Source of the DNA: Burkholderiales bacterium
GTDB lineage: Bacteria > Pseudomonadota > Gammaproteobacteria > Burkholderiales > Rhodocyclaceae
Length of the DNA: 46,990 bases
Direction of reading: 5' to 3'
Assembly (NCBI GenBank): GCA_964203325.1
Contig: CAXNNH010000001.1
Coordinates: forward strand, 1 to 46,990
Made by a program: the position numbers and the translations under genes. Under the pieces are notes generated by a model that had not been told where the DNA came from, made no database searches, and saw nothing but the letters and a program-made list of their open reading frames with translations. Below, in pieces: positions 20,138 to 33,961 of the stretch; positions within the stretch are counted from its first letter, which is position 1, and each line of letters starts with the position of its first letter.

Positions 20138-20174
20138 GCATGCCGATGGCACTTTGGTTAGGTGCTGGCTCTGA

Positions 20175-20242
20175 AGGAGCAGCTTCAGCCGCGAGCCTCC
20201 AGCTATCATTGTGCTGTTCGCGCCTGAAGGCGCTCCTACGTG
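20175..20242. repeat. REPIN, family B
   Basis: The left arm aggagcagcttcagccgcga and the right arm tcgcgcctgaaggcgctcCTACgtg are near reverse complements. The element lies in the 118-nt gap between 20137 and 20256. Confidence 0.6.
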
Positions 20243-20255
20243 ACATCGCTAACGT

Positions 20256-21356
20256 ATGCTGAAACCAGCCGACAATATTCAAATGACTCAACGCGCTCGC
20301 CTCATCGCCTTTCACTTGCCGCAGTTCCACCCAACGCCGGAAAACGATGCCTGGTGGGGCAAAGGTTTTACCGAGTGGACCAATGTCGCCAAGGCGAAGC
20401 CGTTGTTTCCTGGCCACTATCAACCCCACATTCCTGCGGACCTGGGGTTTTATGACTTGCGCCTGCCCGAGGCGCGACATGCTCAGGCTGAACTGGCAAA
20501 GGAATATGGTGTCAGCGGCTTTTGTTATTACCACTACTGGTTTGGTGATGGTCGACGCATTCTGGAGCGACCGGTCAACGAGGTACTCTCAAGCGGCGAG
20601 CCGGATTTTCCGTTCTGTTTGTGCTGGGCCAACCATTCCTGGAACAGCATTTGGCAAGGTACCAACGAGATGCTGATGGAGCAGCGCTATCCGGGTTGGG
20701 ATGATCATGCCGCGCATTTCGATTGGCTGCTGCGCGCGTTCACAGATCCGCGCTACCTTACTGTGGACGGCAAACCAATCTTTGTTATCTACAAGCCGGA
20801 TGACATCCCCGAAATACAAAAAGTGACCGACTATTGGCGTGAGCGTGCGCTCAAGGCAGGTTTACCCGGGTTGCATCTGATCGGCTTTTCTCATTACAAC
20901 CAAAAATGGGATCCTCGAACACGTGGCCTCGATGCAAGCACCATGCAAGCCTTGCCCAATAGAAACGGGCGGATTCCACGTCGTCATCTCAGCACCAAGA
21001 TTAAACTGGCGCTGCAAGGCAACAAGCACGAATTGACCTTATGGGATTACAAGGACGTCTTGCCCATACTGCTGCGCACCAATCAAGTCGATTGGACGGA
21101 TTACCCTCTGGTATTGCCAAATTGGGACAACACGCCCCGGTCCGGCATGCGTGGTTTGGTATTTGAAAACGCCACGCCAGAATTGTTTCGTGGCCTACTG
21201 AACAAGGCCATTGAACGTGTCTCAACCCGGCCGGCGGACGAACGTATTGTCTTTCTGAAAGCATGGAACGAGTGGGCGGAGGGAAACTATGTGGAGCCGG
21301 ACCAAAAATGGGGCCGGGCCTGGCTTGAAGTTATCAAACAGGAGTTGCAAGCATGA
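20256..21356 (+). CDS. WbsX-family (GH99-like fold) glycosyl transferase/hydrolase-like protein
   Basis: LIAFHLPQFHPTPENDAWWGKGFTEWTNVAKAKPLFPGHYQPHIPADLGFYDLR...CYYHYWF...CLCWANHSW is the WbsX family N-terminal signature as I recall it. Confidence 0.7.
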   Translation: MLKPADNIQMTQRARLIAFHLPQFHPTPENDAWWGKGFTEWTNVAKAKPLFPGHYQPHIPADLGFYDLRLPEARHAQAELAKEYGVSGFCYYHYWFGDGRRILERPVNEVLSSGEPDFPFCLCWANHSWNSIWQGTNEMLMEQRYPGWDDHAAHFDWLLRAFTDPRYLTVDGKPIFVIYKPDDIPEIQKVTDYWRERALKAGLPGLHLIGFSHYNQKWDPRTRGLDASTMQALPNRNGRIPRRHLSTKIKLALQGNKHELTLWDYKDVLPILLRTNQVDWTDYPLVLPNWDNTPRSGMRGLVFENATPELFRGLLNKAIERVSTRPADERIVFLKAWNEWAEGNYVEPDQKWGRAWLEVIKQELQA

Positions 21357-22324
21357 GTGAGACAGCGGCCGAAAAATCGAGCGAGATTCGCCCTCTGATC
21401 TCGGTGGTGATGCCCTGCTTCAACGCTGCCCCCTATCTGGCTGAGGCAGTCGGTTCCGCTTTGGGGCAAACCTATGGCAACGTCGAAGTCGTACTGGTGG
21501 ATGATGGTTCTACCGATGGTTCTGCTGAGATTGCCGCACAACTAGCAACTGAACACCCCGAACGTGTTCGGTTACTCCACTCTCCTCACATGGGGCCTTA
21601 CCCAGCGCGGAATAAGGCGCTTCGTATCATCCAGGGCGAGTTCGTTGCGTTTCTTGACGCCGATGACTGGTGGGATGCCAGCACGCTGGAAAAACTTCAT
21701 GCGGCTTTGACCACCGCCAATGCCGATATCGCCTATTGCGGTTGGCAGAATGTGGGGGAGGGCTTGACTCTGGAACCCTATGTGCCTCACGAATATGAGA
21801 AGGCAGATCCGGTCGATGCGTTTCTCCGTTCCTGCCCCTGGCCAATTCATGCCGCACTGATAAAGCGTACCATCGTCGACCGCATCGGCGGTTTTTCCGA
21901 ACGGCGCTTTTCTTCGATGGACTACGACTTCTGGCTGCGTGCACTGGCGCAAACACGCAGCATCACGCGCGTGCCCGAGGTATTGGCGTTCTACCGCTGG
22001 CACGGCCAGGGTCAGCTATCAGCGGTGAAATGGCGGCAGGTGCTGGATGCGCTCGAAGCGCAGCAAGCCTTCATCGCCGCCAACCCGCGACTGGTGGCGC
22101 ATCTACCGCTGGAAAAGTTGCGCGATTTGACGGAAGGGCAAGTGCTGCGTCAGGCTTATCGTGCCTTCTGGAAGCGTGATCTGCTGTCGGCGCAGAAGCT
22201 GTTCCGTCATGTGGCAACGCATGGCGGTTTTGCTCTCAGCGATCTGCGCCATATCCTGGCAGCACTGTTGCCGATGACGATTTATCGCGGCCTTGTCCAT
22301 CTGACCGAGCGGAGCCGCCAATGA
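21353..22324 (+). CDS. Family 2 glycosyltransferase
   Basis: Motifs ISVVMPCFNAAPYLAEAVGSALGQ, VLVDDGSTDGS, FLDADDWW and DYDFWLR. Confidence 0.85.
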   Translation: MSETAAEKSSEIRPLISVVMPCFNAAPYLAEAVGSALGQTYGNVEVVLVDDGSTDGSAEIAAQLATEHPERVRLLHSPHMGPYPARNKALRIIQGEFVAFLDADDWWDASTLEKLHAALTTANADIAYCGWQNVGEGLTLEPYVPHEYEKADPVDAFLRSCPWPIHAALIKRTIVDRIGGFSERRFSSMDYDFWLRALAQTRSITRVPEVLAFYRWHGQGQLSAVKWRQVLDALEAQQAFIAANPRLVAHLPLEKLRDLTEGQVLRQAYRAFWKRDLLSAQKLFRHVATHGGFALSDLRHILAALLPMTIYRGLVHLTERSRQ

Positions 22325-23118
22325 GCCAGGCCACCCGGATTCCTGTGTTGATGTACCACCGTGTCGGCGCCTCCAGTAATGCCTGGGAGGCACGTTACGC
22401 GATTTCCCCCGAGGGTTTCGCCGCCCACATGCAAACCCTCGCCAGATCGGGCTATCGCGCGGTCGATATCGATGCTCTGGTGGACTGGCTGGAGGGTGGC
22501 GCTGCATTGCCTGAGGGGGCGTTCCTGCTCACCTTCGATGACGGTTTCCGCGGCGTTCGAGAGCATGCCCTGCCGGTGCTGGAAAAGCTGGGCTGGCCGT
22601 TCACCGTCTTTCTGGTCAGTGACCTGATCGGTGGTGAGGATGTCTGGACGCGTAGCAGCAATCCCTCCGGGGCTACCTTCCCGCTGCTGGATGCTGGCGA
22701 GATCCGGGACATGCAGCGACGCGGCTGTAGTTTCCATTCGCATACTCGCAGTCACGCCAGTTTGCCGAAGCTCGATGATGTGGCGCTGGCCGATCAATTG
22801 CGGGGGTCGCGCTCGGCTCTGGCCGAACTGCTCGACCATGACGTGCGTTATATCGCTTATCCTTTTGGCCATCTGGATGAACGGGTGGAGGCCGCCACCC
22901 GTGCCGCCGGCTATCGTGCAGCCTTCGCCACGCAGCCTGGTTTCAACCGTCGCGACGTGAACCGGTTCCGGATTCGCCGCATCGACGTGTTCGGCACCGA
23001 TACCCCAGCCATGCTTGCACGCAAGATTCACCTCGGCAGCAACGACGGCAGTCTGGGCCATGCCTTGCGCTATTACCTGGCGCGCCTGAGCAGCCGGCTG
23101 CCCGGAGTCGGACGATGA
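22321..23118 (+). CDS. Polysaccharide deacetylase (NodB homology / CE4)
   Basis: Motifs IPVLMYHRV, LTFDDGF (Asp-Asp motif) and HSHTRSH (His-x-x-x-His metal motif). Confidence 0.8.
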   Translation: MSQATRIPVLMYHRVGASSNAWEARYAISPEGFAAHMQTLARSGYRAVDIDALVDWLEGGAALPEGAFLLTFDDGFRGVREHALPVLEKLGWPFTVFLVSDLIGGEDVWTRSSNPSGATFPLLDAGEIRDMQRRGCSFHSHTRSHASLPKLDDVALADQLRGSRSALAELLDHDVRYIAYPFGHLDERVEAATRAAGYRAAFATQPGFNRRDVNRFRIRRIDVFGTDTPAMLARKIHLGSNDGSLGHALRYYLARLSSRLPGVGR

Positions 23119-24044
23119 GCTTCGCCTACAGTGTTGCCCTGTGCACCCATAACCATGCCGACCGCCTTGTGCGCACACTCGCAGACCTGCCCGGCATCCG
23201 GCAGCCCCGCGCCGCATGGGAATTGCTGATCATCGATAACGCTAGCCGCGACGCTACCCCCGAAATCCTTGCCAACCACGCGTGGCCGGTGGAATGGACG
23301 GTGCGCGTGGTGCGCGAGGAAAAGCTTGGCCTCTCCAACGCGCGCAACCGCGCCATCCGGGAAGCACGCGGTGAGTATGTCATCTTCATCGACGACGACG
23401 AGACCGCCGACGCCGACTGGCTGTGTGCGTTCGAACGCCTGATTGAGGCACAAGCCCCTGATGCCTTCGGTGGCCGTATTGAGGTGCTGTTCGAGGACCA
23501 GCGTCCGTCTTGGCTGCGCGACGAGTTGCTCGGCTTTCTCGGCCAGCTTAACCGCCACGAGATGATCGCGCCCCTGACTGAGCCAGGCACCTCCTTCTAT
23601 GGTGGTAACTTCGGATTCCGTACAAGCGTTTGCGAACGCGTCGGCGCCTTCGATACCGACCTCGGCCGGAAGGGCACGGACAATACGGGTGGGGAGGAAG
23701 TGGACTTTTATCGTCGACTGCTTGGCGCCGGCATGCGCGTGTGGTGGACGCCGGATGCAGTGATTCATCACCGCATCCAGGCGGTGAAGCTTGACCGCCG
23801 CTACTTTATTGACCTGCATTACCGACAGGGTCGCATGGAAGCCATCCGCAAACGCGGTAACGCTTCCCGGCTGCCGCCGCCTTACCTGGTCGGCCAGTTC
23901 GCCCGCGCGCTCCAATCCGTATGGAATGAATATCGCATCGGTGGTCGTGACGCCACGTTGCGCAAGGAAATGAACGTGGCCTATTTCGTCGGCTACATCA
24001 ACGGCTGGCTGTTTGGCCCGGCGCCGGATACTTCTGCATCGTGA
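23115..24044 (+). CDS. Family 2 glycosyltransferase
   Basis: Motifs SVALCTHNHADRL, LIIDNASRDAT, GLSNARNRA and FIDDDE. Confidence 0.8.
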   Translation: MSFAYSVALCTHNHADRLVRTLADLPGIRQPRAAWELLIIDNASRDATPEILANHAWPVEWTVRVVREEKLGLSNARNRAIREARGEYVIFIDDDETADADWLCAFERLIEAQAPDAFGGRIEVLFEDQRPSWLRDELLGFLGQLNRHEMIAPLTEPGTSFYGGNFGFRTSVCERVGAFDTDLGRKGTDNTGGEEVDFYRRLLGAGMRVWWTPDAVIHHRIQAVKLDRRYFIDLHYRQGRMEAIRKRGNASRLPPPYLVGQFARALQSVWNEYRIGGRDATLRKEMNVAYFVGYINGWLFGPAPDTSAS

Positions 24045-24862
24045 TCCGCCTCGCGTTCCGACTCGACGATCCCTCAGCCACCAGCAATCGGGAGATTGAG
24101 GCGCGCATCCTGGAATCCCTTGCGCGCCACGGCCTGCGCGCCACTTTCGCGGTGATTCCGTTTCGCGGTGAGGAGGCGACACCTCTGCCTTTGACCAGGG
24201 AACGGGCGCGGCCGCTGCGCGAAGCTGTTGAACAAGGCGTGCTGGATGTCGCCCTGCATGGCCATTCCCACCACGATAATAATCCTGGCGGCCAACCCAG
24301 CGAGTTCGCCGGCTTGCCGGCATCCCGCCAACGCGAGCTGATCTCGTCTGGAAAGGACTTGCTGGAGGCGATCTTCGAACGCCCCATCCGTGGTTTCGTT
24401 CCACCCTACAACAGCTTCGATGCTGCGACCCTGGCCGTGCTTGAGCAAGCCGGACTCAGCCATCTGTCCTCGAATATGCGCTATGCGCCGATGCGTCATA
24501 CTTCTCTGCGTCTGCTACCGCTTACCTGCCACCTCCCAGAGCTGAAGGCTGCGATCGCTGAGGCGCGCCGTTTCTCTCGTTTGCAGCCGCTGGTCGTCGT
24601 GGTCATGCACCACTACGATTTCCCCGGAGGCGAGGCGCCGGTATTCTCTGATTTCGCAGAGTTCGACGCGCTGTTGGCCTGGATCGCCGAGCAGAAAGAT
24701 GTCCAGATCAGGACACTGTCACAACTGGCTGAAGAACTTACTTCCACCGCTAGCCAGCGCGTATTTCAGCATAATCGCCTGCGGGATCACCTTCCCTGGC
24801 GTTATCGTCACTGGCTGCCCAGCCTTTGCGCGGCCTCCCGGCCGTTGTGGTGGCCTGGATGA
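24041..24862 (+). CDS. Deacetylase-like protein (DUF2334-like, glycoside hydrolase/deacetylase fold)
   Basis: GTG start overlapping the upstream TGA. Motifs RLDDPSATSN, ATFAVIPF, ALHGHSHHD and FVPPYNSFD are typical of this fold. Confidence 0.5.
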   Translation: MIRLAFRLDDPSATSNREIEARILESLARHGLRATFAVIPFRGEEATPLPLTRERARPLREAVEQGVLDVALHGHSHHDNNPGGQPSEFAGLPASRQRELISSGKDLLEAIFERPIRGFVPPYNSFDAATLAVLEQAGLSHLSSNMRYAPMRHTSLRLLPLTCHLPELKAAIAEARRFSRLQPLVVVVMHHYDFPGGEAPVFSDFAEFDALLAWIAEQKDVQIRTLSQLAEELTSTASQRVFQHNRLRDHLPWRYRHWLPSLCAASRPLWWPG

Positions 24863-24887
24863 AGGCCGCGTCTGGAAGCTCGCCAAC

Positions 24888-25706
24888 ATGCCATATTCAA
24901 CCTTGGAGGATCGCTTTATGAACAAAGAAGAACTGCTTGCCGAAGTCGCTAAACATGAATGGATGCACACCATCGACCTCGGCCAGGGTGTGGTTACTCC
25001 CGGCCGTTGGCCTGTCAACCAGAACACCCTAAGCGCTTACGACCGAATTGATTTCAAGGGCAAGAAGGTTCTAGACCTGGGTTCCTGCAATGGCCTCTGG
25101 TCTTTTGAAGCCGAACGTCGTGGCGCTGCCGAGGTGTATTCCGTCGATTACCTGACCCATGTCGGCTATTGGTGCACCCCGGCCTACAAGCTTGCCCATG
25201 AGGCGCTCGGCTCGAAGGCCAAATACTTTCCGGACATGAATGTCTATGACGTGGAGCAGCTCGGCATCAACGACTTCGACGTGGTGATCTTCAGCGGCAT
25301 TTACTACCACCTCAAGCACCCCCTGATGGCGTTGACGATTCTTCGCCGGGTGATGAAGGAGGGGGGGCACATTATCATCGAGGGGCCGATCTTTCCGGAT
25401 GTCGAGCAGAGTTATTCCAGCTTTCACTATCGTGATCTTCTGTTCGGCGACAAGAGCAACTGGTGTGTGCCGAGCTTGCGCTGTTTGCGGGAGTGGGTCG
25501 AATGCTCCTTTTTCGAGATCGAGACGGAGTCTTTCAACCAGGAACTTCCCTCCGGCGGTAAGCAGAAACTCAAGTCAATGATTCGCGCCGGCCTGGGTAA
25601 GCAGTCCTCCGACATCCTGCGTACCGTAATGCTGGCGCGGGCGGTGGTCCGCAAGGATCCACTCTATTCCACCATCGATCCCGATCTGGCCGCCTTCTTC
25701 CGCTGA
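24888..25706 (+). CDS. Class I SAM-dependent methyltransferase (DUF1698/CmoB-like subgroup)
   Basis: Start taken at the internal ATG 24888 (MPYSTLEDRF). WMHTIDLGQGVVTPG is present and SAM motif I is VLDLGSCNGLWSF. VVIFSGIYYHLKHP is also present. Confidence 0.75.
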   Translation: MPYSTLEDRFMNKEELLAEVAKHEWMHTIDLGQGVVTPGRWPVNQNTLSAYDRIDFKGKKVLDLGSCNGLWSFEAERRGAAEVYSVDYLTHVGYWCTPAYKLAHEALGSKAKYFPDMNVYDVEQLGINDFDVVIFSGIYYHLKHPLMALTILRRVMKEGGHIIIEGPIFPDVEQSYSSFHYRDLLFGDKSNWCVPSLRCLREWVECSFFEIETESFNQELPSGGKQKLKSMIRAGLGKQSSDILRTVMLARAVVRKDPLYSTIDPDLAAFFR

Positions 25707-25722
25707 GCCGCCGAACGCCAGC

Positions 25723-26664
25723 ATGCGTCTGACTATCCTGATCTGCACCCACGACCGCGTCGAGTTGCTGGGCAAGACGCTGGCCTCGCTGAATGCCGCC
25801 GAGCGGCCGGTCGGCTGGGAGGTGGACATTCTGGTGATTGCCAATGCCTGCGAGGACGGTACCCATTCCTTCCTCGGCGCCTATCCGGATGGATTGCCGG
25901 GCGCGCTCCCCCTCCACTGGTTAGCAGAGCCGACGCCGGGCAAGTCGCACGCGCTGAATCTGGCGATGGGCGTGGTCGAGTCCGATCTGGTTGCTTTCGT
26001 CGATGACGATCACCGCGTTGACCCCACCTATCTTGACGCTGTCTGCCGGGCCGCCGACCAGTACCCGGAAACCGACCTGTTTTGCGGCCGCATCTTGCCC
26101 GATTGGGATGGCAGCGAGCCCGCGTGGGTGCACGACAACGGCCCGTACCGGATCTATCCGTTGCCGGTGCCGCGCTTCGACCTCGGCGGCGCCGGTCGCC
26201 CGATCGATGCCGATATCGCCATTCCCGGCGGCGGCAACTTGTTCCTGCGCACACCCTGGCTGCGCCGGGTCGGCTCCTTCGTGGTCGAACTTGGCCCGGT
26301 TGGCCACAACCTTGGTGGTGCCGAAGATATTGAATGGGTGCTGCGCGCCCTCGGGCTGGGCGCGCGCCTGCGCTATGTCCCGGAGGTCATGCAACATCAC
26401 TTTGTCGATACCGAGCGCCTGTGCATGCGTTACCTTCTCGCCAAGGCCTATGAGAGATCGGCCTCCACCGTGCGCGTGCATACTTCCGCTGCCGAGGGCG
26501 TTCCGCTGTATATGTATCGCAAGCTGTTCGGCTATCTCTTTTCTGCCTTGACCGCCTGGTCGACCAATCGCCGCCGCTTCTTTCTGGTTCGACTGGCGGC
26601 CAGCCTGGGAGAGATCAAGGGTCATCGGCAGGCGCGTGGCGACCGCTTGAGGAACACGCGATGA
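25723..26664 (+). CDS. Family 2 glycosyltransferase
   Basis: Motifs LTILICTHDRVELL, LVIANACEDGT, GKSHALNLA and FVDDDH. Confidence 0.8.
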   Translation: MRLTILICTHDRVELLGKTLASLNAAERPVGWEVDILVIANACEDGTHSFLGAYPDGLPGALPLHWLAEPTPGKSHALNLAMGVVESDLVAFVDDDHRVDPTYLDAVCRAADQYPETDLFCGRILPDWDGSEPAWVHDNGPYRIYPLPVPRFDLGGAGRPIDADIAIPGGGNLFLRTPWLRRVGSFVVELGPVGHNLGGAEDIEWVLRALGLGARLRYVPEVMQHHFVDTERLCMRYLLAKAYERSASTVRVHTSAAEGVPLYMYRKLFGYLFSALTAWSTNRRRFFLVRLAASLGEIKGHRQARGDRLRNTR

Positions 26665-27617
26665 ATCCGCTTGAAAAACTGCTCAAGCTGCGCGACCCGG
26701 AAATCCGCGCCAAGAATCTGCGTGCCCTGCGCTACGCCGCTCGCGGTCTCGCCTGGGACATCCTGCGTCCGGCGCAACCCGATCCGGTCTTTCTGGTCGG
26801 CTGCTCGCGCTCCGGAACCACGGTCACTTACGAAACGCTGGCGGCGGCGCCACAACTGCTCAAGTTTGGCTATGAACTCCCGGATTTCTGGGACAGCCTA
26901 TGGGGACCGCTCAATAACGGCTGGGAGTCCGAAGCCGCCGGCGCTGAACAGGCCATGCCGGAACATCGCGATGCCGCCCTGCGCTTTTTCTATCAGCGTT
27001 TGGGCGCCGGGCGCGTGCTCGACAAAACCTGTATCAACACGCTGCGCCTGCCTTACCTGTACAAGCTGTTTCCTGAGGCTCGCTTCGTCTTCATCCAGCG
27101 TGATGGTCGCGACAACATCAGTTCGATGATCGACGGCTGGCGCCACGGCCGCACTGATGGCGGTTTCGGTCTGGAGAATTTTTTCGGCCCGTTCCCGGAA
27201 CCGGTGGCGATCAATGGCGGTGAATTCGACGAATGGCATTTCTTCCTGCCGCCAGGCTGGCGCGAGTACAACCACGCCAGCCTGGAGGAGGTGTGCGCAT
27301 TCCAGTGGGTTTCCGCTAATCGCCTGGCGCTCGACGCCAAACGCCTGATTCCGGCAGCGCAATGGGTGCATCTGCGTTATGAGGATCTGTTCACCCGGCC
27401 GGTCGAGATGTTCGAGGCCGCATTCGCGCAGCTCGAACTGCCCTTCACGGAGGCGGTCCGCCAGCGTTGCGCCAACCTTCACAAGCGCCCCACCAGTATC
27501 GTCAAGGGTTCGCCGCAACGGCAGAAATGGCGGCAACACAATCCCGAGGCCATTGATCGCATCCTGCCGATGATCCGGCCCCTGATGGAACAGCTCGGCT
27601 ATGACGCGGATGATTGA
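26661..27617 (+). CDS. PAPS-dependent sulfotransferase family protein
   Basis: The 5'-PSB loop is VFLVGCSRSGTTVTYE and the 3'-PB motif is FVFIQRDGRDNISSM. ATGA coupling to the upstream GT2. Confidence 0.8.
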   Translation: MNPLEKLLKLRDPEIRAKNLRALRYAARGLAWDILRPAQPDPVFLVGCSRSGTTVTYETLAAAPQLLKFGYELPDFWDSLWGPLNNGWESEAAGAEQAMPEHRDAALRFFYQRLGAGRVLDKTCINTLRLPYLYKLFPEARFVFIQRDGRDNISSMIDGWRHGRTDGGFGLENFFGPFPEPVAINGGEFDEWHFFLPPGWREYNHASLEEVCAFQWVSANRLALDAKRLIPAAQWVHLRYEDLFTRPVEMFEAAFAQLELPFTEAVRQRCANLHKRPTSIVKGSPQRQKWRQHNPEAIDRILPMIRPLMEQLGYDADD

Positions 27618-28518
27618 CCGTGACCAGACGCCCCCACTGGTTAGCGTGGTCATACCTACCTACAACTCGGCGACCACCTTGCCGCGCACGCTTGCCAGCG
27701 TGCTAGCGCAAACCTGGACACGGTGCGAGATACTGGTAATCGACGATGGCAGCGCAGACACCACGCCAGCGCTGCTAGCCGGTTACGGCGAGCAGTTGCG
27801 CGCTATCCGCCAGGATAATGCCGGGCCGTCCGCCGCTCGTAACCGAGGCCTGCGCGAAGCGCGTGGCGACTATGTGGCGTTTCTCGATGCCGACGATCTT
27901 TGGCTGCCGGAAAAGCTGGAACGCCAGGTTGCTCTGCTGTCCGCGCACCCGGAGCTAGGCTTCTGCTCCACTGCCACGAGTGTGGTCGACCCGGAAGGAT
28001 CCCCTCTGCGTGATTGGCCTTGCCGAAGCGGCGAGGAGCCTCTGCTGGAAACCCTGTTTATGCACAGCGCGGCGGTAAGCGGCTCCACCTCGGGCGTATT
28101 GGCGCGCCGCCAGCTGGTTCTGGACGCAGGCGGCTTCGACGAAAGCCTGCGCGGCTTCGAGGACCCCGATCTGTGGATCCGCCTCGCCGCGCGCACCGGC
28201 TATGCCTGCGTCCCGGAGCGGCTCACTCGCGTGGTGCGGATGCCCGGGAGCGTCAGCGGCAACTTGCCCACGATGTGCGCGGCAACCCTGGCTTCGTTCG
28301 AGAAAAACCGCGACCTGCTGCCACCGGACAAGCGTGGCGCATATTGGCGCGCTGCCTGCGCCGGTGCCCTGGCGGACTATGCCAAGGGAGTTTATCGCCA
28401 GGGGCGGAGCGGCCTGGCGCTGGTCTGGCTGCTGCGTGCCCTGTGGCTGTCGCCATGGCGGCGCGGGCGTCTTCTGCTCGGTTTGCTGTTCGCTGTGCTC
28501 ACGGGGCGCGCGCTGTGA
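27601..28518 (+). CDS. Family 2 glycosyltransferase
   Basis: Motifs VSVVIPTYNSATTLPRTLASVLAQ, LVIDDGSADTT, FLDADDLWLPEKLERQ and EDPDLWIR. The alternative start at 27610 is equally possible. Confidence 0.85.
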   Translation: MTRMIDRDQTPPLVSVVIPTYNSATTLPRTLASVLAQTWTRCEILVIDDGSADTTPALLAGYGEQLRAIRQDNAGPSAARNRGLREARGDYVAFLDADDLWLPEKLERQVALLSAHPELGFCSTATSVVDPEGSPLRDWPCRSGEEPLLETLFMHSAAVSGSTSGVLARRQLVLDAGGFDESLRGFEDPDLWIRLAARTGYACVPERLTRVVRMPGSVSGNLPTMCAATLASFEKNRDLLPPDKRGAYWRAACAGALADYAKGVYRQGRSGLALVWLLRALWLSPWRRGRLLLGLLFAVLTGRAL

Positions 28519-30602
28519 TGAGCGATCAGGCCTTTCTCGTCCTGGCCATACAGGCCAGCAACATCGCCTCGCTGGTGGCGGCCCTGATTACCTTACTGTT
28601 ACTGGGCAAGTCGTTGCGCGATTTCAGCCAGACCGGGCCGCCGTTGGGCCGCGAAGTGCTGCGCCATTACCGTGGCGCGCTGGCGCTCAGCCTGGCCAGA
28701 CTGGGGCTGGCGGCGTTCCTGCTGGCCAACCTGCTTGCCTTGCCCGGCAGCTTTATCTATCTATCCAGTCTGGCCCTGTTCCAGCTACCCTTCCATCCGT
28801 TGGCTGCGGCTGCGGCCGCCCTGGCTTCGCTGGCCTTGCTGCTGCTGTTCCAGTTCTGTCGGGTGCTGCATGATTCGCCGGGCATCATCGTTGCCTCCTC
28901 GCATTACGCGATGCCTCGCTTCTATCCCCTCTGGGAGAAGCTGTCGCCTACTCTGCTTCAGCGCTGGTCGAACTGGGGTAGCGGCATCTATATCGGCTGG
29001 GTGTTGCTGGGAATCGCCGCGCTGTTCTGGCAGGGCGCTGTCTATTCCGCGCTGGCGTTGTTCATGCTGCACGGCCTCGCCTTGCTGTTCTACCAAATCT
29101 GGATCGCGGAGAGTGAGCCACTGCCGCTACCCGCGACGTCCGCTCGAAAGCGGCGCAATCTGCTGATGATCGGCTCCGATACCCTGCGTGCGGATCGCCT
29201 CGGGCTGGCCGGTTATCACCGCGACCTGACTCCCAACCTCGACCGCCTGGCTGCGCGCGGAGTCGCCCTCAGCCATTGTTATGTGCCGTGCGCAAGAACC
29301 GCGCCCAGTCTGCTCTCGCTGTTTACTGGCAGCTGGCCGCATAGCCATGGCGTGCGCGACAACTTTGTCAGCGATAACGACAGCTACCTGACCCAGGCTG
29401 CCCTGCCCGAATTGCTTGCGGCCGCCGGCTACCAGACTGCGGCAGTCGGCGACTGGGCGGCTTCCGATCTGTCCAAGTTCAATTTGGGCTTCCAATCACT
29501 GGATGTGCCGGCGGATCAATGGAACCTGAAATTCCTCCTGCGCCAGGGCCCCAAGGACATCCGTCTGTTTCTTTCCCTGTTCATCGACAACCGTATCGGC
29601 AAATTCTTTCTTGAAGAGATCTATTACCTGGGTGGGGTGCCGCTGACCCGCCAAATCGGACTTCGCTCTCGCCAGATGCTGGAACACCTGGGCTCCGACG
29701 AGCGGCCATTCTTCCTCAATGTGTTCATGGCCAGCACACATCCACCTTTCGCTAGTGAATACCCTTACTACACGATGTATGCCGATCCCGCTTATCGGGG
29801 GCCGTCCAAGTTCGCGATGGCCAAGCTGACCGAGCCGTTCGAGATCATCCGCCGACAGGGCGAGCCGCGTGAGGAATTCGACCTGGAACAGATCATTGAT
29901 CTCTACGACGGCTGTGTGAAGAGTTTTGATGACGAGCTCGGTCGTATCCTCGACTACCTGGATGCAAGTGGGCTGGCTCAGGAGACCCTGGTGGTGGTGT
30001 ACAGCGACCATGGGATGGAATTCTTCGAGCATGAGACCTGGGGCCAGGGCAACTCCGCGATTGGCGATTTTTCGGCGCGTGTTCCGGTTGTCATGGCCGG
30101 ACCGACACTGGCGACGGGATGCCGCCTGGACGGTGTGACCCGCAGCATCGATCTGGCGCCCAGCCTGCTGGAACTCCTGGATCTGCCCATCGCCTCGACG
30201 ATGGAGGGTGTCTCACTTGCGGCGGCCATGCGCGGCGCGCCGTTGCCGGAGCTACCTGCTTTCTACGAAACAGGCATCTGGCTGACGACGTTGCCAGGCA
30301 CGCCACCTGGCCACCTCAGCTATCCGGGCATTCTCGAGTTGCTCGAAGTACCCGATCTGTCTACCGGCACACTGGCGGTTAAGCGCGCCTATCAGGAGGC
30401 GGTGGTCGCCGCCAAGGATCGCATGGTTCGCCTTGGCCACTGGAAGCTAGTCTGCCAGCCACTCGTGAACGGTGAATTGCTGCGTCTCTATAACCTGCGG
30501 ACAGATCCGGAATGCCGCATCGACGTGTCGGAACAGCATCCAGAAATCGCTAGTCGGCTTTGGGGTCTACTCCGGGCGTGGATGGGGTTGCCGCTGGATT
30601 GA
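28518..30602 (+). CDS. Membrane-anchored alkaline-phosphatase-superfamily ('sulfatase-like') hydrolase/transferase
   Basis: Start taken at ATG 28518 (MSDQAFLVLAIQ), overlapping the upstream TGA by 1 nt. About 190 aa form several hydrophobic helices. The catalytic domain follows: LLMIGSDTLRADRLG...TPNLDRLAARGV...CARTAPSLLSLFTG. The nucleophile position aligns to Thr (T-A-P-S-L), not to the C/S-x-P-x-R of formylglycine sulfatases. Confidence 0.75.
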   Translation: MSDQAFLVLAIQASNIASLVAALITLLLLGKSLRDFSQTGPPLGREVLRHYRGALALSLARLGLAAFLLANLLALPGSFIYLSSLALFQLPFHPLAAAAAALASLALLLLFQFCRVLHDSPGIIVASSHYAMPRFYPLWEKLSPTLLQRWSNWGSGIYIGWVLLGIAALFWQGAVYSALALFMLHGLALLFYQIWIAESEPLPLPATSARKRRNLLMIGSDTLRADRLGLAGYHRDLTPNLDRLAARGVALSHCYVPCARTAPSLLSLFTGSWPHSHGVRDNFVSDNDSYLTQAALPELLAAAGYQTAAVGDWAASDLSKFNLGFQSLDVPADQWNLKFLLRQGPKDIRLFLSLFIDNRIGKFFLEEIYYLGGVPLTRQIGLRSRQMLEHLGSDERPFFLNVFMASTHPPFASEYPYYTMYADPAYRGPSKFAMAKLTEPFEIIRRQGEPREEFDLEQIIDLYDGCVKSFDDELGRILDYLDASGLAQETLVVVYSDHGMEFFEHETWGQGNSAIGDFSARVPVVMAGPTLATGCRLDGVTRSIDLAPSLLELLDLPIASTMEGVSLAAAMRGAPLPELPAFYETGIWLTTLPGTPPGHLSYPGILELLEVPDLSTGTLAVKRAYQEAVVAAKDRMVRLGHWKLVCQPLVNGELLRLYNLRTDPECRIDVSEQHPEIASRLWGLLRAWMGLPLD

Positions 30603-31437
30603 CGGGTGGGATGTCGGGACAGAAACGGCAGAACGGATTGGTGCTGGAACCGATCTCGACCTTGATGGGGGCGTATTTGTTGGCGCCTTTTTTCGGGGTT
30701 GCTGGTGCGGCGGTTGATTCCTTAGGTTGCTCGGGTGCATTTGTGATGACCGGCGCCGTGGCTGCTGCAGACGGGGCACCCGTGCTCGGCGCGGGGGTGG
30801 CGGTGGTTTCGGCGGTTGCCGCAACTGGCTTGTCGACTGGTGCGGTTGCGTCGGTTGCATTCGCATTGGGGTAAGGCATTGCGCCACCCAACTCTTTGTA
30901 CATGCGCATCAATCCCTTGTTAGTAGGATTAAATTGCAAGCCGCGGGTCACTGTTTCCAAAGCGTTCTTCTTATCTTTGTTCCTGAGGAAGAATTCGGCC
31001 AGACCGATATACGCCCGGGGGAGACGCGGATTGCCGTTCATCGCCTTGGAATATTCTGCCGCAGCGAGTCCGGTTTTTTTTTGTAGAGAATAGATGACCG
31101 CTTTTTGTAGATAGATTTCCGGTAGCAATGAAAAATCGGGCGACGTGTGCTCAATGACGTAGTCACAGCCGTCCAGGGCTTCGCTGAGGTAGAAATCGAA
31201 ATCCCGCTTATCCTTCTTGCCCATTAATCGATAGGCGTGATTCGTGAAGCGAACACAGTCGCAATAGTGGTGTACGTGCGTCCAGTTTTGGTTTTTTGGC
31301 ACCGCGCGACTGTATATCGTAGCTTCGCACATCTTCCTTTCTTCCTGCGTGGCTGCGTAAAACCCAGAGGCGGACGAAGACGCCAGCACGGAGAGTAGAA
31401 AAAGACTTGTGGCGCGGAAGGCTGCAATAGGCTTCAT
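30550..31437 (-). CDS. Exported TPR-repeat protein with an Ala/Pro/Thr-rich C-terminal tail
   Basis: Start preferred at 31437 (MKPIAAFRATSLFLLSVLASSSASG, signal-like), preceded by GGAGA 7 nt upstream. TPR-like helices are present (AVIYSLQKKTGLAAAEYSKAMNGNPRLPRAYIGLAEFFLRNKDKKNALETVTRGLQFNP). The low-complexity tail is ATAETTATPAPSTGAPSAAATAP. Confidence 0.6.
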   Translation of the reverse strand: MKPIAAFRATSLFLLSVLASSSASGFYAATQEERKMCEATIYSRAVPKNQNWTHVHHYCDCVRFTNHAYRLMGKKDKRDFDFYLSEALDGCDYVIEHTSPDFSLLPEIYLQKAVIYSLQKKTGLAAAEYSKAMNGNPRLPRAYIGLAEFFLRNKDKKNALETVTRGLQFNPTNKGLMRMYKELGGAMPYPNANATDATAPVDKPVAATAETTATPAPSTGAPSAAATAPVITNAPEQPKESTAAPATPKKGANKYAPIKVEIGSSTNPFCRFCPDIPPVNPAATPSTPGVDPKAD

Positions 31438-31472
31438 GGGGGTATCTCCGGAAAGATGGTCTTGATCAAGTC

Positions 31473-32627
31473 TCATACAAGCGAACGGGTTTTGTTCGCC
31501 ACTGAATCCCAGCTGAATTCAGTGCGTGCACGGGCGAGGCCGGCATCGGCCAGTCGCGCCGCAAAAACGGCATCGTTTAAAACAGCGCAAAGGGCAGAGG
31601 TGACTAATTCTTCACGATGGCCGTCAATGCGTAAACCCGTTTCGCCATCCACCACTGCCGCTGCGGTGCCACCGGCATCTCCGGCAATAGCAGGCTTGCC
31701 GCAGGCCGCCGCTTCCAGGAACACCATGCCGAAACCCTCTGTGTCACCGTTGATCTCGCGGTTCGCCATGACAAAAACGTCGCAGGCGTTGTACCAGCGC
31801 GGCAGGTCTTCCGGGCTGACATGGCCGAGCAGATGCAGGCGCTCGGATACGCCCAGTTCTTTCGCTAGTTCAGACAAGTAGTCCCAGTCTTCGCCGATGC
31901 CGATGAGTGCGTAATGAACGTCAATGCTCTGTTTGACCAATTCAGGCAGCGAGCGAATGACCTGGTCGAAACCTTTACGACGCACCAGGCGCCCCACCGA
32001 CAAAATCAGTTTCTGCCCGGTTTGCAGGCCAATGGATTGTTTGAGGTCTTCACATGGCAGGCCAGGGCGGAAGCGTTCGGTCTCGACGCCGGGGTAGATC
32101 AAAGTAATGGTTTCGCGCCGCACGCCAAGCTTGACCATTTCTTCCAGCGTGTATTCGCTGTTGGCGATGTTGGCATCGGCATGCCGGTAAACCCAGAGCA
32201 TGGTGCGGAATTTGCGCCCGCGTCCCCAAGTGGAGAGTTCTTCGCCGTGGCAGTAGACCACCAGCGGCTTACGCAATAGGCGCGCCATGATCCAGGCCAC
32301 CAGGCCTTCAGGCAGCGCGCGGGCACCGTGGACTGCGTCGAATTTGTTGTTGAACGCTACCAGCAGCGATTTGCCGAGCATTTTCAGATACATGCCGAGT
32401 GATTCCGGTTTCAGCCACCAGACCCGTTTGAGCCCGACTCGATGAATGCTGTTGGAGTGGATCCGGTCGATGGCGGCAGCATTGGGCACATCGGCGGTAA
32501 TGATATGCACGCCTTTACCCCCCATCCGGCGATAGACGGCGTCATACCAGACGGTAGTGCCACCTTTCGTGGGCAGGAACAATTCGGAGATGACCAGCAG
32601 ACGGGATAGAGGCGGCGCAGGTTTCAC
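31473..32627 (-). CDS. Family 4 (GT-B) glycosyltransferase
   Basis: LLVISELFLPTKGGT at the N-terminus and TEGFGMVFLEAAACGKPAIAGDAGG (E-x7-E) at the C-terminus. Confidence 0.8.
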   Translation of the reverse strand: MKPAPPLSRLLVISELFLPTKGGTTVWYDAVYRRMGGKGVHIITADVPNAAAIDRIHSNSIHRVGLKRVWWLKPESLGMYLKMLGKSLLVAFNNKFDAVHGARALPEGLVAWIMARLLRKPLVVYCHGEELSTWGRGRKFRTMLWVYRHADANIANSEYTLEEMVKLGVRRETITLIYPGVETERFRPGLPCEDLKQSIGLQTGQKLILSVGRLVRRKGFDQVIRSLPELVKQSIDVHYALIGIGEDWDYLSELAKELGVSERLHLLGHVSPEDLPRWYNACDVFVMANREINGDTEGFGMVFLEAAACGKPAIAGDAGGTAAAVVDGETGLRIDGHREELVTSALCAVLNDAVFAARLADAGLARARTEFSWDSVANKTRSLV

Positions 32628-33811
32628 GGGCGGAGTTCAGATCGAGCAAACAGGTTGAGCAATGGGAGCAGACCGGTCAGGCGCGCCGCCTTGCCAAAAC
32701 GCGGCAGGCAGGCAATACGCCGAAGCCAGATGGTAAACCGGCATCGAGGGTCTTGCTCGATCCAGTTTGCGTCTCCGGTTCTGATCGCGCGCCCGAGTTC
32801 AGCCGGTGAGGCGAAACGCAGATTCGGGAAATCGTGCAGCGCACGGGTAAAGAGATCATCCAGCGCAGCCAATGCGGCGGTCGGATTGCCACCAGCTTCG
32901 GTCAGGAAATTGCTGCGATGGGTTTCCAGCAAGCAGGGGCGGCCCAGTGCGGTTTTACGCGCCAGCGCGGCCAGCGCTTGTTCTGGCCGATGTCCGAATA
33001 CCGGCTCGAAGTAATCGTCGCGCACCAGGTAGATCACATCCCCCGCGCCTCGGTCACCATTCAGCATGGTCTTGTCCTGGCAACCCGGTTTCCCGTCTGC
33101 ATCCCGACAAGTCAGCCTGCGCCCCGGTGTAATAACCACCGCCACCCCCTGGTTCGCCCAAGCCGCCTCAACCCGAGAATCCCAGACAAAAGTAGGCGGC
33201 ACCACCACCAAATCCGTAGCTCCTACATTTAGCGCCTTGAACAACCCCACTTCTTCCGCAACGGCTGCTTGAATTTCCTCAAGCTTATGGGGCTTTGAAG
33301 GGAGATTTGCCGCATTGGTCCAGCGGCTTTGCAGGTGTGACGGAAGCTGTTCCGTGAGTTCGGGTTTATTTAGCCAGATGCGGACTTCAGGTTGCTCGCG
33401 AGCGGCTTCTTGCACGCTATCCGGCCAGAAATGCATCATGCCGTGCAGTTGCACGGCGAAGACGCCTTGCGTTTGGCCACTGAGAATGGAATTCAGAACA
33501 GGAAGCTGATTGGCATCCGCCAACGTCACTTTTCCAGCCATTTCAGGTTTCGGAATGGCCAGAATCAGCGCTAGCGTCATGCATGCCGGGCGTCCGGTTA
33601 CGTCATGATGTCGGTTAAGACAGGCTGCTAATTCAGTCAGCGCGTTGGCCTGCGTGAGCGGGCCGGCGCCCCAGTCATCGCTTTCAACTATCAGAATCGG
33701 CGCTTTGAAGGCGGGTTCACGCCAGAGGGCAAGAAGAGGGCCACGAAAGGCGAGCAACAGGCCAGCAGCTAAAGACAGCCAAGCTAGGACAACAAAGAAG
33801 AGCAGGGTCAT
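32624..33811 (-). CDS. N-terminally membrane-anchored protein, deacetylase/glycoside-hydrolase-fold-like, function unknown
   Basis: One TM segment (LLFFVVLAWLSLAAGLLLAF), then ILIVESDDWG, VQLHGMMHF and LLETHRSNF. The His/Asp-rich motifs are reminiscent of the DUF2334/CE4-like fold. Confidence 0.35.
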   Translation of the reverse strand: MTLLFFVVLAWLSLAAGLLLAFRGPLLALWREPAFKAPILIVESDDWGAGPLTQANALTELAACLNRHHDVTGRPACMTLALILAIPKPEMAGKVTLADANQLPVLNSILSGQTQGVFAVQLHGMMHFWPDSVQEAAREQPEVRIWLNKPELTEQLPSHLQSRWTNAANLPSKPHKLEEIQAAVAEEVGLFKALNVGATDLVVVPPTFVWDSRVEAAWANQGVAVVITPGRRLTCRDADGKPGCQDKTMLNGDRGAGDVIYLVRDDYFEPVFGHRPEQALAALARKTALGRPCLLETHRSNFLTEAGGNPTAALAALDDLFTRALHDFPNLRFASPAELGRAIRTGDANWIEQDPRCRFTIWLRRIACLPRFGKAARLTGLLPLLNLFARSELRP

Positions 33812-33916: not shown

Positions 33917-33961
33917 CCCGCCGCGCAAAGTCTGGTGTTGTTTCGGTAAGGGAGAAAATTC

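Follow-up and report, generated by a model that had tools for sequence, protein, structure and literature searches.

A PAPS-Type Sulfotransferase Gene between Two GT2 Genes in a Conserved Glycan-Assembly Cassette: A Probable Decoration Step Rather than an Export Tag

The Sulfotransferase Gene g23 and Its Product

The DNA stretch analyzed here (the window) is a whole contig of 46,990 nt from a Burkholderiales bacterium of the family Rhodocyclaceae. ORF g23 (26661–27617, + strand, ATG start, TGA stop) encoded a protein of 318 aa, which, by its family, motifs, and predicted fold, is a genuine PAPS-type sulfotransferase. In the profile search, the product matched PF13469 (Sulfotransfer_3) with 82.9 bits (cut-off, 27; E-value = 5.2e-23), and none of the NCBIfam models matched it. 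Both PAPS-binding motifs, described as intact in the earlier note, were indeed read in the sequence, namely, GCSRSGTT at residues 47–54 and RDGRD at residues 147–151, the latter being part of the 3′-phosphate motif that extends to S155. Residues G47, C48, S49, R50, G52, T53, R147, D148, G149, R150, D151, and S155 were invariant in 20 orthologues, and in a set of 42 sulfotransferase sequences with identity down to 25%, R50 and R147 were invariant and E72 was at least 90% conserved. In the sequence alignment, R50 and E72 corresponded to chain positions 56 and 77 of TPST2, the Glu standing at the catalytic-base position.

The AF2 model of g23 (pLDDT 93.6, pTM 0.90) consisted of one compact domain with an N-terminal helical pair (residues 3–35); the hydrophobic-segment scan of the protein was empty, with neither a TM segment nor a signal peptide found. 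The closest solved fold in the VIA structure search was that of TPST (Z = 18.7, rmsd = 3.2, 223 aligned residues), and the further matches, all of them PAPS sulfotransferases, were CurM (Z = 17.8), Stf9 (16.4), and NDST1 (15.9), with Stf1 also listed. Each of the best 50 VIA rows was a PAP(S)-binding sulfotransferase fold (Z from 13.3 to 18.7). Seven TPST chains were the sole matches in phmmer (E-values from 1e-6 to 3.7e-4), and in VIA the TPST matches reached Z = 18.4–18.7. The solved structures closest to g23 are those of protein-tyrosine, not carbohydrate, sulfotransferases.

The GT2–Sulfotransferase–GT2 Triad

The sulfotransferase gene was flanked by two genes encoding GT2 glycosyltransferases, namely, g22 upstream (25723–26664, + strand; PF00535, E-value = 4.4e-10) and g24 downstream (27601–28518, + strand; PF00535, E-value = 4.7e-37; start ATG 27601 or ATG 27610). 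The stop codon of g22 (TGA 26662–26664) overlaps the g23 ATG at 26661, so the ATGA coupling of this pair is real. The two candidate starts of g24 share one frame and give an overlap with g23 of 17 or 8 nt, respectively, and thus g23 and g24 are coupled, but not by ATGA. The earlier description of g23 as ATGA-coupled between two GT2 genes was consequently correct for the upstream junction and for the nature of both neighbours, but not for the downstream junction.

Gene presence was counted over 51 well-flanked loci, Wzx over 80 loci, and Wzt_C over 35 genomes. Gene g22 was found in 45 of the 51 loci (directly upstream of the sulfotransferase gene in 36), and g24 in 48 (directly downstream in 45). 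In a related protein of 617 aa (P0128), a GT2 and a sulfotransferase are fused; its N-terminal half was 42% identical to g22 over 306 aa (E-value = 2e-84), and its sulfotransferase-like domain was 37% identical to g23 (E-value = 2.7e-59). A search for longer, fused forms gave one protein, the single sequence P0270 (679 aa, 74% identity), in which a short GT2 match followed the sulfotransferase; this extension may be a read-through. The sulfotransferase is the centre of a GT2–sulfotransferase–GT2 triad and not a strain-specific decoration.

Other Genes of the Cassette

The triad lies inside a conserved cassette corresponding to positions 18182–33811 of the window, in which overlaps of 4 nt run through g16–g20 and g22–g25. 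The cassette starts with g15 (18182–20137, + strand, 651 aa; 11 of 51 loci), a protein without a match to Pfam (even at E-value 5) or NCBIfam. Its AF2 model (pLDDT 79.7) consisted of a beta-sandwich, an (alpha/alpha)6 barrel, and a second beta-sandwich, and matched in VIA the unsaturated glucuronyl hydrolase of GH88 (Z = 19.3), cellobiose 2-epimerases (17–18), and human glucuronyl C5-epimerase (15.6). The closest Atlas cluster beyond its own kin was named after glucuronyl C5-epimerase (TM 0.53/0.66). The assignment of g15 as a C5-epimerase was kept as a lead only, with Foldseek TM values of 0.30 or lower and with the GH88 hydrolase and the cellobiose 2-epimerases outranking human Glce in VIA.

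The following genes, all on the + strand, encode a WbsX-type glycosyltransferase (g16, 20256–21356; PF14307, E-value = 2e-141; 19 of 51 loci), a GT2 protein (g17, 21353–22324; PF00535, E-value = 2.9e-36; 26 of 51) whose gene overlaps g16 by 4 nt, a CE4/NodB-type polysaccharide deacetylase (g18, 22321–23118; PF01522, E-value = 1.1e-23; 35 of 51), and a further GT2 glycosyltransferase (g19, 23115–24044; PF00535, E-value = 7.3e-27), which was found in 13 of 51 loci at an identity of at least 45%, additional loci having weaker GT2 matches at its position. The g18 product carries the TFDDG and HSHTRSH motifs and has no hydrophobic N-terminus or signal peptide. Next to g19 lie a DUF2334/deacetylase-like gene (g20, 24041–24862, + strand; PF10096, E-value = 1.6e-15), present in two of 51 related loci, and a SAM methyltransferase gene (g21, + strand, ORF 24699–25706, likely start 24888 or 24918; PF08003/PF08241), present in none of them; the match of g21 to TIGR04290 (E-value = 3.6e-22) was below the cut-off of the model. 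Thus, g20–g21 (24041–25706) are an insert specific to the window.

Downstream of the triad, g25 (28515–30602, + strand; 26 of 51 loci) encodes a membrane protein with about six hydrophobic segments and a sulfatase-family domain (PF00884, E-value = 1.7e-43). In the alignment with sulfatase 7p24, the nucleophile (formylglycine Cys/Ser) position is occupied by the T of its RTAPS sequence and the Arg position by L, and RTAPS was present in 38 of 38 g25 orthologues. The reading of g25 as a true sulfatase that edits the product was rejected because an invariant T-A-P-S-[LIM] stands where the formylglycine motif CxPxR should be. The cassette ends with a conserved trio on the opposite strand, convergent to the sulfotransferase strand (g26–g28, 30550–33811, − strand). 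It comprises a TPR protein with a signal-like N-terminus and weak TPR matches (g26, 30550–31476; 12 of 51 loci), a GT4 glycosyltransferase (g27, 31473–32627; PF00534, E-value = 7.7e-37; 32 of 51), and an N-terminally anchored protein with GH57/DUF2334-like Atlas features (g28, 32624–33811; 17 of 51). A scan of positions 17500–34500 for promoters and terminators gave 4 and 16 sites, respectively, against 5.9 and 17.8 in shuffled sequences, i.e., no excess.

Spread of the Cassette

The distribution of the cassette was patchy, covering beta- and gammaproteobacteria and Desulfacinum, with a sulfotransferase identity of 57–89%; carriers in this range were found in Thauera, Methyloversatilis, Aromatoleum, Azoarcus, Competibacteraceae, Thiobacillus, Rubrivivax, and Chromatiaceae. 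The GC content was 60–63% over 22–30 kb of the window and 44–54% over 4–18 kb, the genome average being 56%. We propose that the conserved cassette is horizontally mobile and modular.

Export Route

A gene for a Wzt ABC-transporter ATPase (2570–3883, probable start ATG 2642, + strand; PF00005, E-value = 8.6e-22) lies on the same strand as the sulfotransferase gene, 22.8 kb upstream of it. Its Wzt_C domain (approximately nt 3440–3787) matched PF14524 with 38.3 bits (cut-off, 30.4; E-value = 1.6e-9). No Wzm permease gene was found within the window, which starts 2.5 kb before wzt and ends at 46990; the sole Wzm found in the genome of the window was located on another contig (C51), beside another Wzt. 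The first 2.5 kb of the contig are rearranged and contain a 300-nt direct repeat (93%) of the 5′ part of wzt. Strand and spacing alone lead us to infer that wzt and the sulfotransferase gene belong to one continuous operon. The claim of an ABC-transporter-dependent operon was thus borne out in part, with a Wzt carrying a Wzt_C domain on the same strand but no Wzm in the window, where the cassette appears to be joined to a Wzm/Wzt system.

Thirteen of the 35 genomes, ranging from Thiobacillus to Desulfacinum, had an ORF with a Wzt_C domain on the contig of the sulfotransferase gene, 10–40 kb from it, and in 11 of these 13 cases, Wzm was directly beside Wzt. Within the 10-kb flanks, Wzt was found in 2 of 80 loci, the longer range having been seen by whole-genome search. 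A Wzx flippase gene was located upstream in 20 of the 80 loci, whose sulfotransferases were 65–73% identical, and the Wzx-type and Wzt_C-linked sets did not overlap. The Wzt_C domain was absent genome-wide in 15 of 35 genomes holding an orthologue. When the 13 cassette-adjacent Wzt proteins were compared with that of the window, similarity of the ATPase half was detectable in all 13 (29–68% identity), and similarity of the C-domain was detectable in one, at 30% identity.

A quick ML tree was constructed from 78 sulfotransferases, three of the 80 loci having been left out because the match was shorter than 280 residues or contained a stop or X. On this tree, the Wzx/Wzt label needed five changes, at least three of which were forced by well-supported branches. 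The sulfotransferase is thus independent of the export route, and alternation between Wzx and Wzt was observed. It is unusual for one cassette to serve both the Wzx and the ABC routes, and its product might be a defined oligosaccharide, not a polymer.

PAPS Supply and Exosortase Genes

No match to APS kinase (PF01583) was found in the genome of the window, which is 62.5% complete, and an APS kinase domain was detected in all five other cassette-bearing genomes tested. Six of 80 loci contained an additional sulfotransferase that carries a fused PAP-phosphatase-like domain. An exosortase gene was found 17–75 kb from the sulfotransferase gene in 27 of 40 genomes, namely, on the same contig (PF09721, 17–75 kb) in 22 of 35 and at 18–35 kb in five of five further genomes, for which the shared contig was deduced from coordinates. 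No exosortase was found in the genome of the window, at 62.5% completeness and with the contig ending at 46990. The literature search found no paper tying a sulfotransferase to exosortase/PEP-CTERM loci.

Proposed Role of the Sulfotransferase

The first option of the earlier note, the sulfation of a glycan, agrees with the gene context, namely, the overlaps of g23 with two GT2 genes, the triad order kept upstream in 36 and downstream in 45 of 51 loci, and the P0128 fusion. We consider it rather probable that the enzyme carries out a cytoplasmic, PAPS-dependent sulfation of a lipid-linked glycan between two GT2 steps, as a structural decoration compatible with either export route. The g23 protein would transfer sulfate from PAPS to a sugar of a lipid-linked glycan intermediate at the inner face of the cytoplasmic membrane, with g22 presumably acting before it and g24 after it; this acceptor, order of steps, and cellular side are what we infer from the gene context. 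The cassette would contribute further glycosyltransferases and a cytoplasmic CE4 deacetylase, and the membrane-anchored, Thr-type sulfatase-like protein g25 probably decorates the exported glycan. Once complete, the sulfated glycan would be exported by the route of the host locus, i.e., Wzm/Wzt in the lineage of the window and Wzx/Wzy in others. Because the glycan would leave by whichever route the locus provides, the sulfate is better regarded as a structural anionic decoration than as an export signal. Cytoplasmic sulfation of a lipid-linked glycan is well supported by this context, and a cap read by Wzt is not, owing to the triad, the fusion, the alternation of Wzx and Wzt, and the unconserved Wzt C-domains.

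The cap reading, the second option of the earlier note, supposes that sulfate on the non-reducing terminal sugar stops elongation and makes an epitope for the Wzt C-domain in Wzm/Wzt-type loci, including the window. Non-sugar caps, e.g., methyl or phosphomethyl, are what Wzt C-terminal domains read, and the Wzt with a Wzt_C domain 22.8 kb upstream on the same strand, as well as the Wzt_C-linked loci in 13 of 35 genomes (10–40 kb, same contig; Wzm beside Wzt in 11 of 13), are consistent with such a role. As a conserved role, however, it does not agree with the orthologous sulfotransferases accompanied by Wzx instead in 20 of 80 loci, with the 15 of 35 genomes without any Wzt_C match, or with C-domains whose similarity was detectable in one of 13 cases (30%), compared with 29–68% identity for the ATPase halves and 57–89% for the sulfotransferases. 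Terminators are typically built with a ruler or a coiled coil, or are fused to a polymerizing glycosyltransferase, whereas g23 is a single domain between two glycosyltransferases, with neither a ruler nor a second catalytic domain. The methyltransferase g21 of the window, present in none of the 51 other loci, is a more classical cap candidate, and a sulfate cap, though conceivable in the Wzt-type subset to which the window belongs, is quite unlikely. Two other readings place the acceptor outside the glycan of the cassette. RaxST, which sulfates RaxX, is a model for tyrosine sulfation of a secreted protein before export, such as a PEP-CTERM protein handled by the exosortase system nearby; TPST1/2 were the best matches in sequence (E-value = 1e-6) and structure (Z = 18.7), g23 agrees with TPST in its PRSGTT-like and RDGR motifs and in the placement of the catalytic Glu, and 27 of 40 genomes have an exosortase gene on the contig of the sulfotransferase gene (five by coordinates), at a distance of 17–75 kb. 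This reading is nevertheless highly improbable in view of the conserved immediate neighbours, which are glycosyltransferases (45 and 48 of 51 loci) and not a peptide precursor or peptide exporter, of the GT2 fusion in the close relative P0128, of the narrow gap between TPST (Z = 18.7) and other sulfotransferases (17.8 and 16.4), and of the exosortase-free result for the 62.5% complete genome of the window. Bacterial sulfotransferases of solved role act mostly on lipo-oligosaccharides, glycolipids, and polyketides (NodH, Stf0–3, CurM), and CurM, Stf9, and Stf1 were among the fold matches of g23; yet sulfation of a nucleotide sugar, of a glycolipid or LPS core/lipid A, or of some small metabolite is very unlikely, as both the strict GT2–sulfotransferase–GT2 order and the existence of a GT2 fusion point to a step within the assembly of a glycan, and the window is devoid of genes for lipid A, Nod factors, or polyketides.

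A special case of glycan sulfation is N-sulfation, in which g18 would expose the amine of an N-acetylhexosamine and the sulfotransferase would convert it into a sulfamate. In animals, NDST deacetylates and then forms the sulfamate on heparan sulfate. Compatible with this are the intact CE4 motifs of g18, which has no signal peptide, shares the string of overlapping genes with the sulfotransferase gene in the window, and accompanies it in 35 of 51 loci, the presence of NDST1 among the fold matches (Z = 15.9), the (alpha/alpha)6 barrel of g15 and its Atlas cluster named after glucuronyl C5-epimerase (TM 0.53/0.66), and the excess of N-linked over O-linked sulfate in the EPS of granular sludge, as reported in PMC10483923. 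On the other hand, no g18 match was found within 9–10 kb in 16 of 51 loci, TPST and CurM outscored NDST in the structure search, g18 is neither adjacent nor fused to the sulfotransferase gene, the fold match of g15 is unspecific (GH88 hydrolase Z = 19.3 against 15.6 for human C5-epimerase), and a free amine may serve another purpose; N-sulfation is therefore considered unlikely. It is also rather improbable that the cassette is a heparan-sulfate-like line, with g18 as N-deacetylase, g23 as N-sulfotransferase, and g15 as uronyl C5-epimerase, leading, in the exosortase-linked EPS loci of floc-forming beta- and gammaproteobacteria, to the N-sulfated, glycosaminoglycan-like polymers that chemical analysis has detected in the matrices of activated and granular sludge.

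Sulfation of a lipid-linked glycan thus stands as the preferred reading, with g23 probably serving to decorate the glycan and not to tag it for export. Since the gene is flanked by glycosyltransferase genes in a cassette common to many environmental bacteria, a sulfated surface polymer, not an export tag, is its most likely product.

Sulfated glycoconjugates have been chemically measured in wastewater granules and biofilms, and their enzymes are still to be named; in the available part of the granular-sludge report, where N-linked sulfate exceeds O-linked sulfate, no responsible enzyme is named (PMC10483923). Given the identity of 57–89% across carriers and the constant glycan-assembly context, the sulfotransferase family described here is a concrete and testable candidate for those glycans. 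Several carriers are cultivable, among them Thauera aminoaromatica S2 and Methyloversatilis universalis FAM5 (both of the Wzx type) and Marichromatium gracile DSM 203 (Wzm/Wzt type), and the literature search found no sulfate measurement for the glycan of any carrier. If the heparan-sulfate-like line were true, genes for N-sulfated, glycosaminoglycan-like polymers of the sludge matrix would be named.

Comparison with Known Systems

The kinase/methyltransferase WbdD of E. coli O9a is a chain terminator of an ABC-transporter-dependent O-antigen that is read by Wzt. The window resembles this type in having a Wzt with a C-terminal carbohydrate-binding-type domain in the locus and an enzyme of non-sugar modification in the same gene string, but g23 differs in having no coiled-coil ruler or second catalytic domain, in being kept in Wzx-type loci and in Wzt_C-less genomes, and in showing no co-variation with the Wzt C-domain. 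With TPST1/2 (PDB 3ap3, 5wrj, 8w5z), g23 shares 20–24% identity (E-value = 1e-6, Z = 18.7), the xRSGTT and RDGR motifs, and the aligned Glu; TPSTs reside in the Golgi and sulfate acidic Tyr peptides, whereas g23 has an extra N-terminal helical pair (3–35), a glycosyltransferase context, and a GT2 fusion in a relative. NDST1 (PDB 8ccy, 9f6z; Z = 15.9) unites a deacetylase and a PAPS sulfotransferase acting on one glycan, while in the window, these functions are encoded by separate, non-adjacent genes, the deacetylase is of the CE4 type, and NDST was not the top fold match.

The earlier note called sulfated bacterial glycans uncommon, a view that is dated, as both a sulfated capsule of Vibrio sp. 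KMM 8419 (PMC11641403) and synechan (PMC8205485) have been described. According to the former report, the structurally solved capsule of KMM 8419 is encoded by an ABC-transporter cluster with sulfotransferases, so that ABC-type glycan loci containing a sulfotransferase are already a known kind (PMC11641403). That cluster includes dedicated cysDNC copies for PAPS as well as three sulfotransferases of putative role (PMC11641403), whereas the window contains no PAPS genes and its sulfotransferase family is conserved across classes and is not strain-specific. The xss cluster for synechan of Synechocystis PCC 6803, with the sulfotransferases XssA and XssE, is similar by description, combining PAPS-type sulfotransferase genes with many glycosyltransferase genes in a cluster for an extracellular polysaccharide (PMC8205485). 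In that report, the repeat unit is proposed to be sulfated while lipid-linked, on the cytoplasmic side of the membrane, and the loss of one sulfotransferase abolished the polymer (PMC8205485). The synechan system is cyanobacterial, uses Wzx/Wzy only, and is regulated by XssS/R/Q (PMC8205485), whereas the cassette described here has one sulfotransferase in a fixed GT2–sulfotransferase–GT2 triad, occurs in proteobacteria and Desulfacinum, and is combined with either Wzx or Wzm/Wzt.

Identity and Fold of the Sulfotransferase

The sulfotransferase (ST) gene, g23, occupies positions 26661–27617 (+), reads from an ATG start to a TGA stop, and encodes a real, intact PAPS sulfotransferase of 318 aa. 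The protein matched Pfam Sulfotransfer_3 at 82.9 bits (cut-off, 27; E-value = 5.2 × 10−23), and no matching model was found in the NCBIfam search. As the earlier note had stated, both PAPS motifs are intact (GCSRSGTT, residues 47–54; RDGRD, residues 147–151); neither motif varied among 20 aligned orthologues, and R50 and R147 were invariant across 42 sequences, down to 25% identity. An AlphaFold model built from the 20-orthologue alignment (pLDDT 93.6, pTM 0.90), on which Foldseek was also run, retrieved the PAP(S)-binding sulfotransferase fold in 50 of its best 50 structural matches. TPST1/2 were aligned with the model over 223–232 residues (Z 18.4–18.7, rmsd 3.2–3.7), and further matches were CurM (Z 17.8), Stf9 (16.4), and NDST1 (15.9). 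In the phmmer alignment with TPST2, R50 and E72 fell on chain positions 56 and 77, which are reportedly the catalytic Arg78 and Glu99 of TPST2. No hydrophobic segment was found in a scan of the ST protein, which is presumably cytoplasmic and located in the same compartment as PAPS.

Distribution and Conserved Gene Cassette

A protein search revealed 925 ST relatives, the best 120 of which had 72–89% identity and belonged to Rhodocyclaceae, Azonexus, Thiocystis, Marichromatium, and Burkholderiaceae. Among species-representative genomes, a relative was encoded in 89 stretches, of which 80 loci were retained, extending as far as Desulfacinum (58–60% identity). One full-length representative stood for the entire orthologue group in a 50%-identity clustered library, with the next relatives at no more than 43%. 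Within the order, ST is nevertheless rare: of 300 further genomes, 4 carried it, all from one genus of another family, and it was found in none of the seven genomes of its own family among these 300. Families and classes were intermixed in the ST tree, and the distribution has the pattern of a mobile yet strongly constrained module.

The window proteins were mapped onto the 80 loci, and presence was then counted in the 51 loci whose flanks reached 9 kb or more on each side of ST. The most frequent members of the cassette (18182–33811) were the GT2 genes g24 (48 of 51, directly downstream of ST in 45) and g22 (45, directly upstream in 36), followed by the CE4 deacetylase g18 (35), the GT4 gene g27 (32), the GT2 gene g17 and the membrane sulfatase-like gene g25 (26 each), the WbsX gene g16 (19), g28 (17), g19 (13), and g15 (11). 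The window-specific insert between g19 and g22 (24041–25706) comprises a DUF2334/deacetylase-like gene, g20 (2 of 51), and a SAM methyltransferase gene, g21 (0 of 51), the latter with a weak TIGR04290/CmoB-like match. An ArnC-like/WecE amino-sugar decoration operon (33962–40367) adjoins the cassette and co-occurs in several relatives; matches to g29 and/or g33 were found in loci L003, L005, L016, L022–L024, and L026.

The ATGA coupling of ST between two GT2 genes, proposed previously, holds upstream, where g22 terminates within the ST start codon; downstream, g24 starts at ATG 27601 or 27610 and is coupled by an overlap of 17 or 8 nt, not by ATGA. Overlaps of 4 nt between adjacent genes continue nearly all the way from g16 (20256) to g25 (30602).

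Organization of the Contig

The source MAG is 62.5% complete (2.0 Mb, 321 contigs), and the window is one entire contig. About 25 genes form a plus-strand run (2570–30602) containing a Wzt ATPase whose Wzt_C domain (PF14524) scored 38.3 bits (cut-off, 30.4), one DegT aminotransferase, one acetyltransferase, numerous GT2/GT1/WbsX glycosyltransferases, two genes of deacetylase type, one methyltransferase, ST, and the membrane "sulfatase". The GC content was 44–54% over 4–18 kb versus 60–63% over 22–30 kb (genome mean 56%). This step fits a boundary between modules, and the glycosyltransferase block close to wzt appears to be a module that differs in origin from the ST cassette.

An apiosidase-like (PF13204) and DUF5060 protein with a glycoside-hydrolase-type fold is encoded within the biosynthetic gene string (9307–10998); its gene has a 4-nt overlap with the preceding GT1, and no hydrophobic segment was detected in the protein. 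At the contig end (42761–45885), a fused E1 alpha/beta thiamine-diphosphate enzyme (668 aa) precedes a lipoyl-domain E2-like acyltransferase; the neighbours of this pair are glycan genes, not central metabolism, and its scores were far under the PDH equivalog cut-offs.

The 5′ end (1–2900; first 2.5 kb) is rearranged. A 300-nt direct repeat (634–933 and 2595–2894, 93%) doubles the 5′ part of wzt, and a nucleotidyltransferase ORF (329–628) lies at the contig 5′ end. Between the repeat copies, there are a Bro-N::GDP-mannose-dehydratase hybrid ORF (1069–1662), a further gmd fragment (1605–1892), a truncated epimerase/fcl-like ORF (2145–2573), a DUF2442 ORF, and small mobile-looking ORFs. This arrangement is either a true insertion with duplication or an assembly chimera.

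Acceptor and Export Route

ST is most likely a glycan-modifying step, as suggested earlier. Genes fused elsewhere normally act successively on one substrate, and P0128 (617 aa), the closest full-length relative with extra length outside the orthologue group in the search of clustered representatives, joins a g22-type GT2 (residues 1–306, 42% identity to g22, E-value = 2 × 10−84) to an ST-like C-terminal half (37%, E-value = 2.7 × 10−59). This fusion, beside the gene order, argues for a glycan acceptor. In more distant relatives, the fusion partner is another sulfotransferase, TPR repeats, an Asp/Asn hydroxylase, or a Kdo/WaaP-type kinase; thus, the wider family is not uniform. An APS kinase domain was found in all five cassette-bearing genomes tested. 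In 6 of the 80 loci (L015, L049, L051, L059, L070, and L078), a second sulfotransferase (Sulfotransfer_4) is fused to an inositol-monophosphatase/CysQ-like domain and looks like a sulfotransferase with its own PAP phosphatase.

The earlier note had placed ST in an ABC-transporter-dependent operon and offered, as one of two readings, that it supplies a sulfate chain terminator recognized by the Wzt C-domain (Wzt, 2570/2642–3883). Within 10-kb flanks, Wzt was near ST in only 2 of 80 loci, an artefact of flank length. When whole genomes were searched for 35 of the 80 loci, picked for long contigs, a Wzt_C ORF was found 10–40 kb from ST on the same contig in 13 (12 exceeding the Pfam cut-off), with Wzm adjoining Wzt in 11 of these 13 regions; the proposed ABC-transporter setting is thus genuine and recurs among these loci. 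The gene string there, Wzm, Wzt, variable glycosyltransferases, and cassette, is similar to that of the window. No Wzm-, Wzx-, or Wzy-like ORF was found in the window, and the sole Wzm detected in its 62.5% complete genome adjoins a different Wzt on contig C51.

The terminator reading is unlikely for ST. A Wzt_C match was absent genome-wide in 15 of the 35 ST-bearing genomes, and a Wzx-type flippase (PF13440) lay a few kb upstream of ST on the same strand in 20 of the 80 loci, 11 of them also with a Wzy_C protein. The Wzx- and Wzt-bearing sets did not overlap, and the label switched at least 3–5 times on a quick ST tree. Among the 13 cassette-adjacent Wzt proteins, the ATPase half was 29–68% identical, and C-domain similarity was detectable in one (30% identity). 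Since ST is kept at 57–89% identity while its supposed reader is absent or unrecognisably different, ST is unlikely to serve that reader. The methyltransferase is a more classical chain-cap candidate than ST in a Wzt-type locus.

An exosortase gene (PF09721) was present on the ST contig, 17–75 kb apart, in 22 of 35 genomes, and 18–35 kb from ST in five of five further genomes, where a shared contig was deduced from coordinates and contig sizes; none was found in the window's own genome (62.5% complete). Genes typical of XrtA loci also recur in the exosortase-linked ST loci, in keeping with this setting: asparagine-synthase paralogues, MBOAT genes, and heparinase-II/III-like genes.

Partner Genes

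The product of g25 (28515–30602, +) was closest to S1 sulfatases (E-value = 2 × 10−25) and has about six N-terminal membrane segments. It carries Thr at the formylglycine Cys/Ser position and L/I/M at the Arg position, which argues against a sulfatase; RTAPS was present in 38 of 38 orthologues. Its features suggest an alkaline-phosphatase-superfamily transferase or hydrolase that faces the periplasm. This uncharacterised Thr-type branch accompanies ST in about half of the loci.

The CE4 deacetylase g18 (22321–23118, +) has intact motifs and no signal peptide. The cytoplasmic protein g15 (18182–20137; 651 aa, no Pfam family) is predicted to comprise a beta-sandwich, an (alpha/alpha)6 barrel, and a beta-sandwich. 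Its structural matches were unspecific (GH88, Z 19.3; cellobiose 2-epimerases, 17–18; human glucuronyl C5-epimerase, 15.6), and its nearest foreign Atlas cluster bears a C5-epimerase name (TM 0.53/0.66). Together, g18, ST, and g15 would allow, rather than demonstrate, a heparan-like logic of deacetylation, N-sulfation, and epimerisation.

Comparison with Known Systems

Literature searches on PEP-CTERM with sulfotransferase revealed nothing relevant, and those on zooglan and on exosortase/floc/sulfate revealed nothing about this family. The interest of ST lies in its conservation, fixed GT2 partners, export-route promiscuity, and possible bearing on sulfated sludge polymers. In granular sludge, sulfated, mainly N-sulfated, glycoconjugates are described, and the responsible sulfotransferases are unknown according to PMC10483923. 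Bacterial polysaccharide clusters that contain sulfotransferases are a known kind: an unexplained sulfotransferase-domain ORF adjoins wzt in Aeromonas salmonicida (PMC4483657), sulfotransferases occur with an ABC transporter in the sulfated capsule cluster of Vibrio KMM 8419 (PMC11641403), and the synechan cluster is a further case (PMC8205485). ST is an uncharacterised new member of this known kind.
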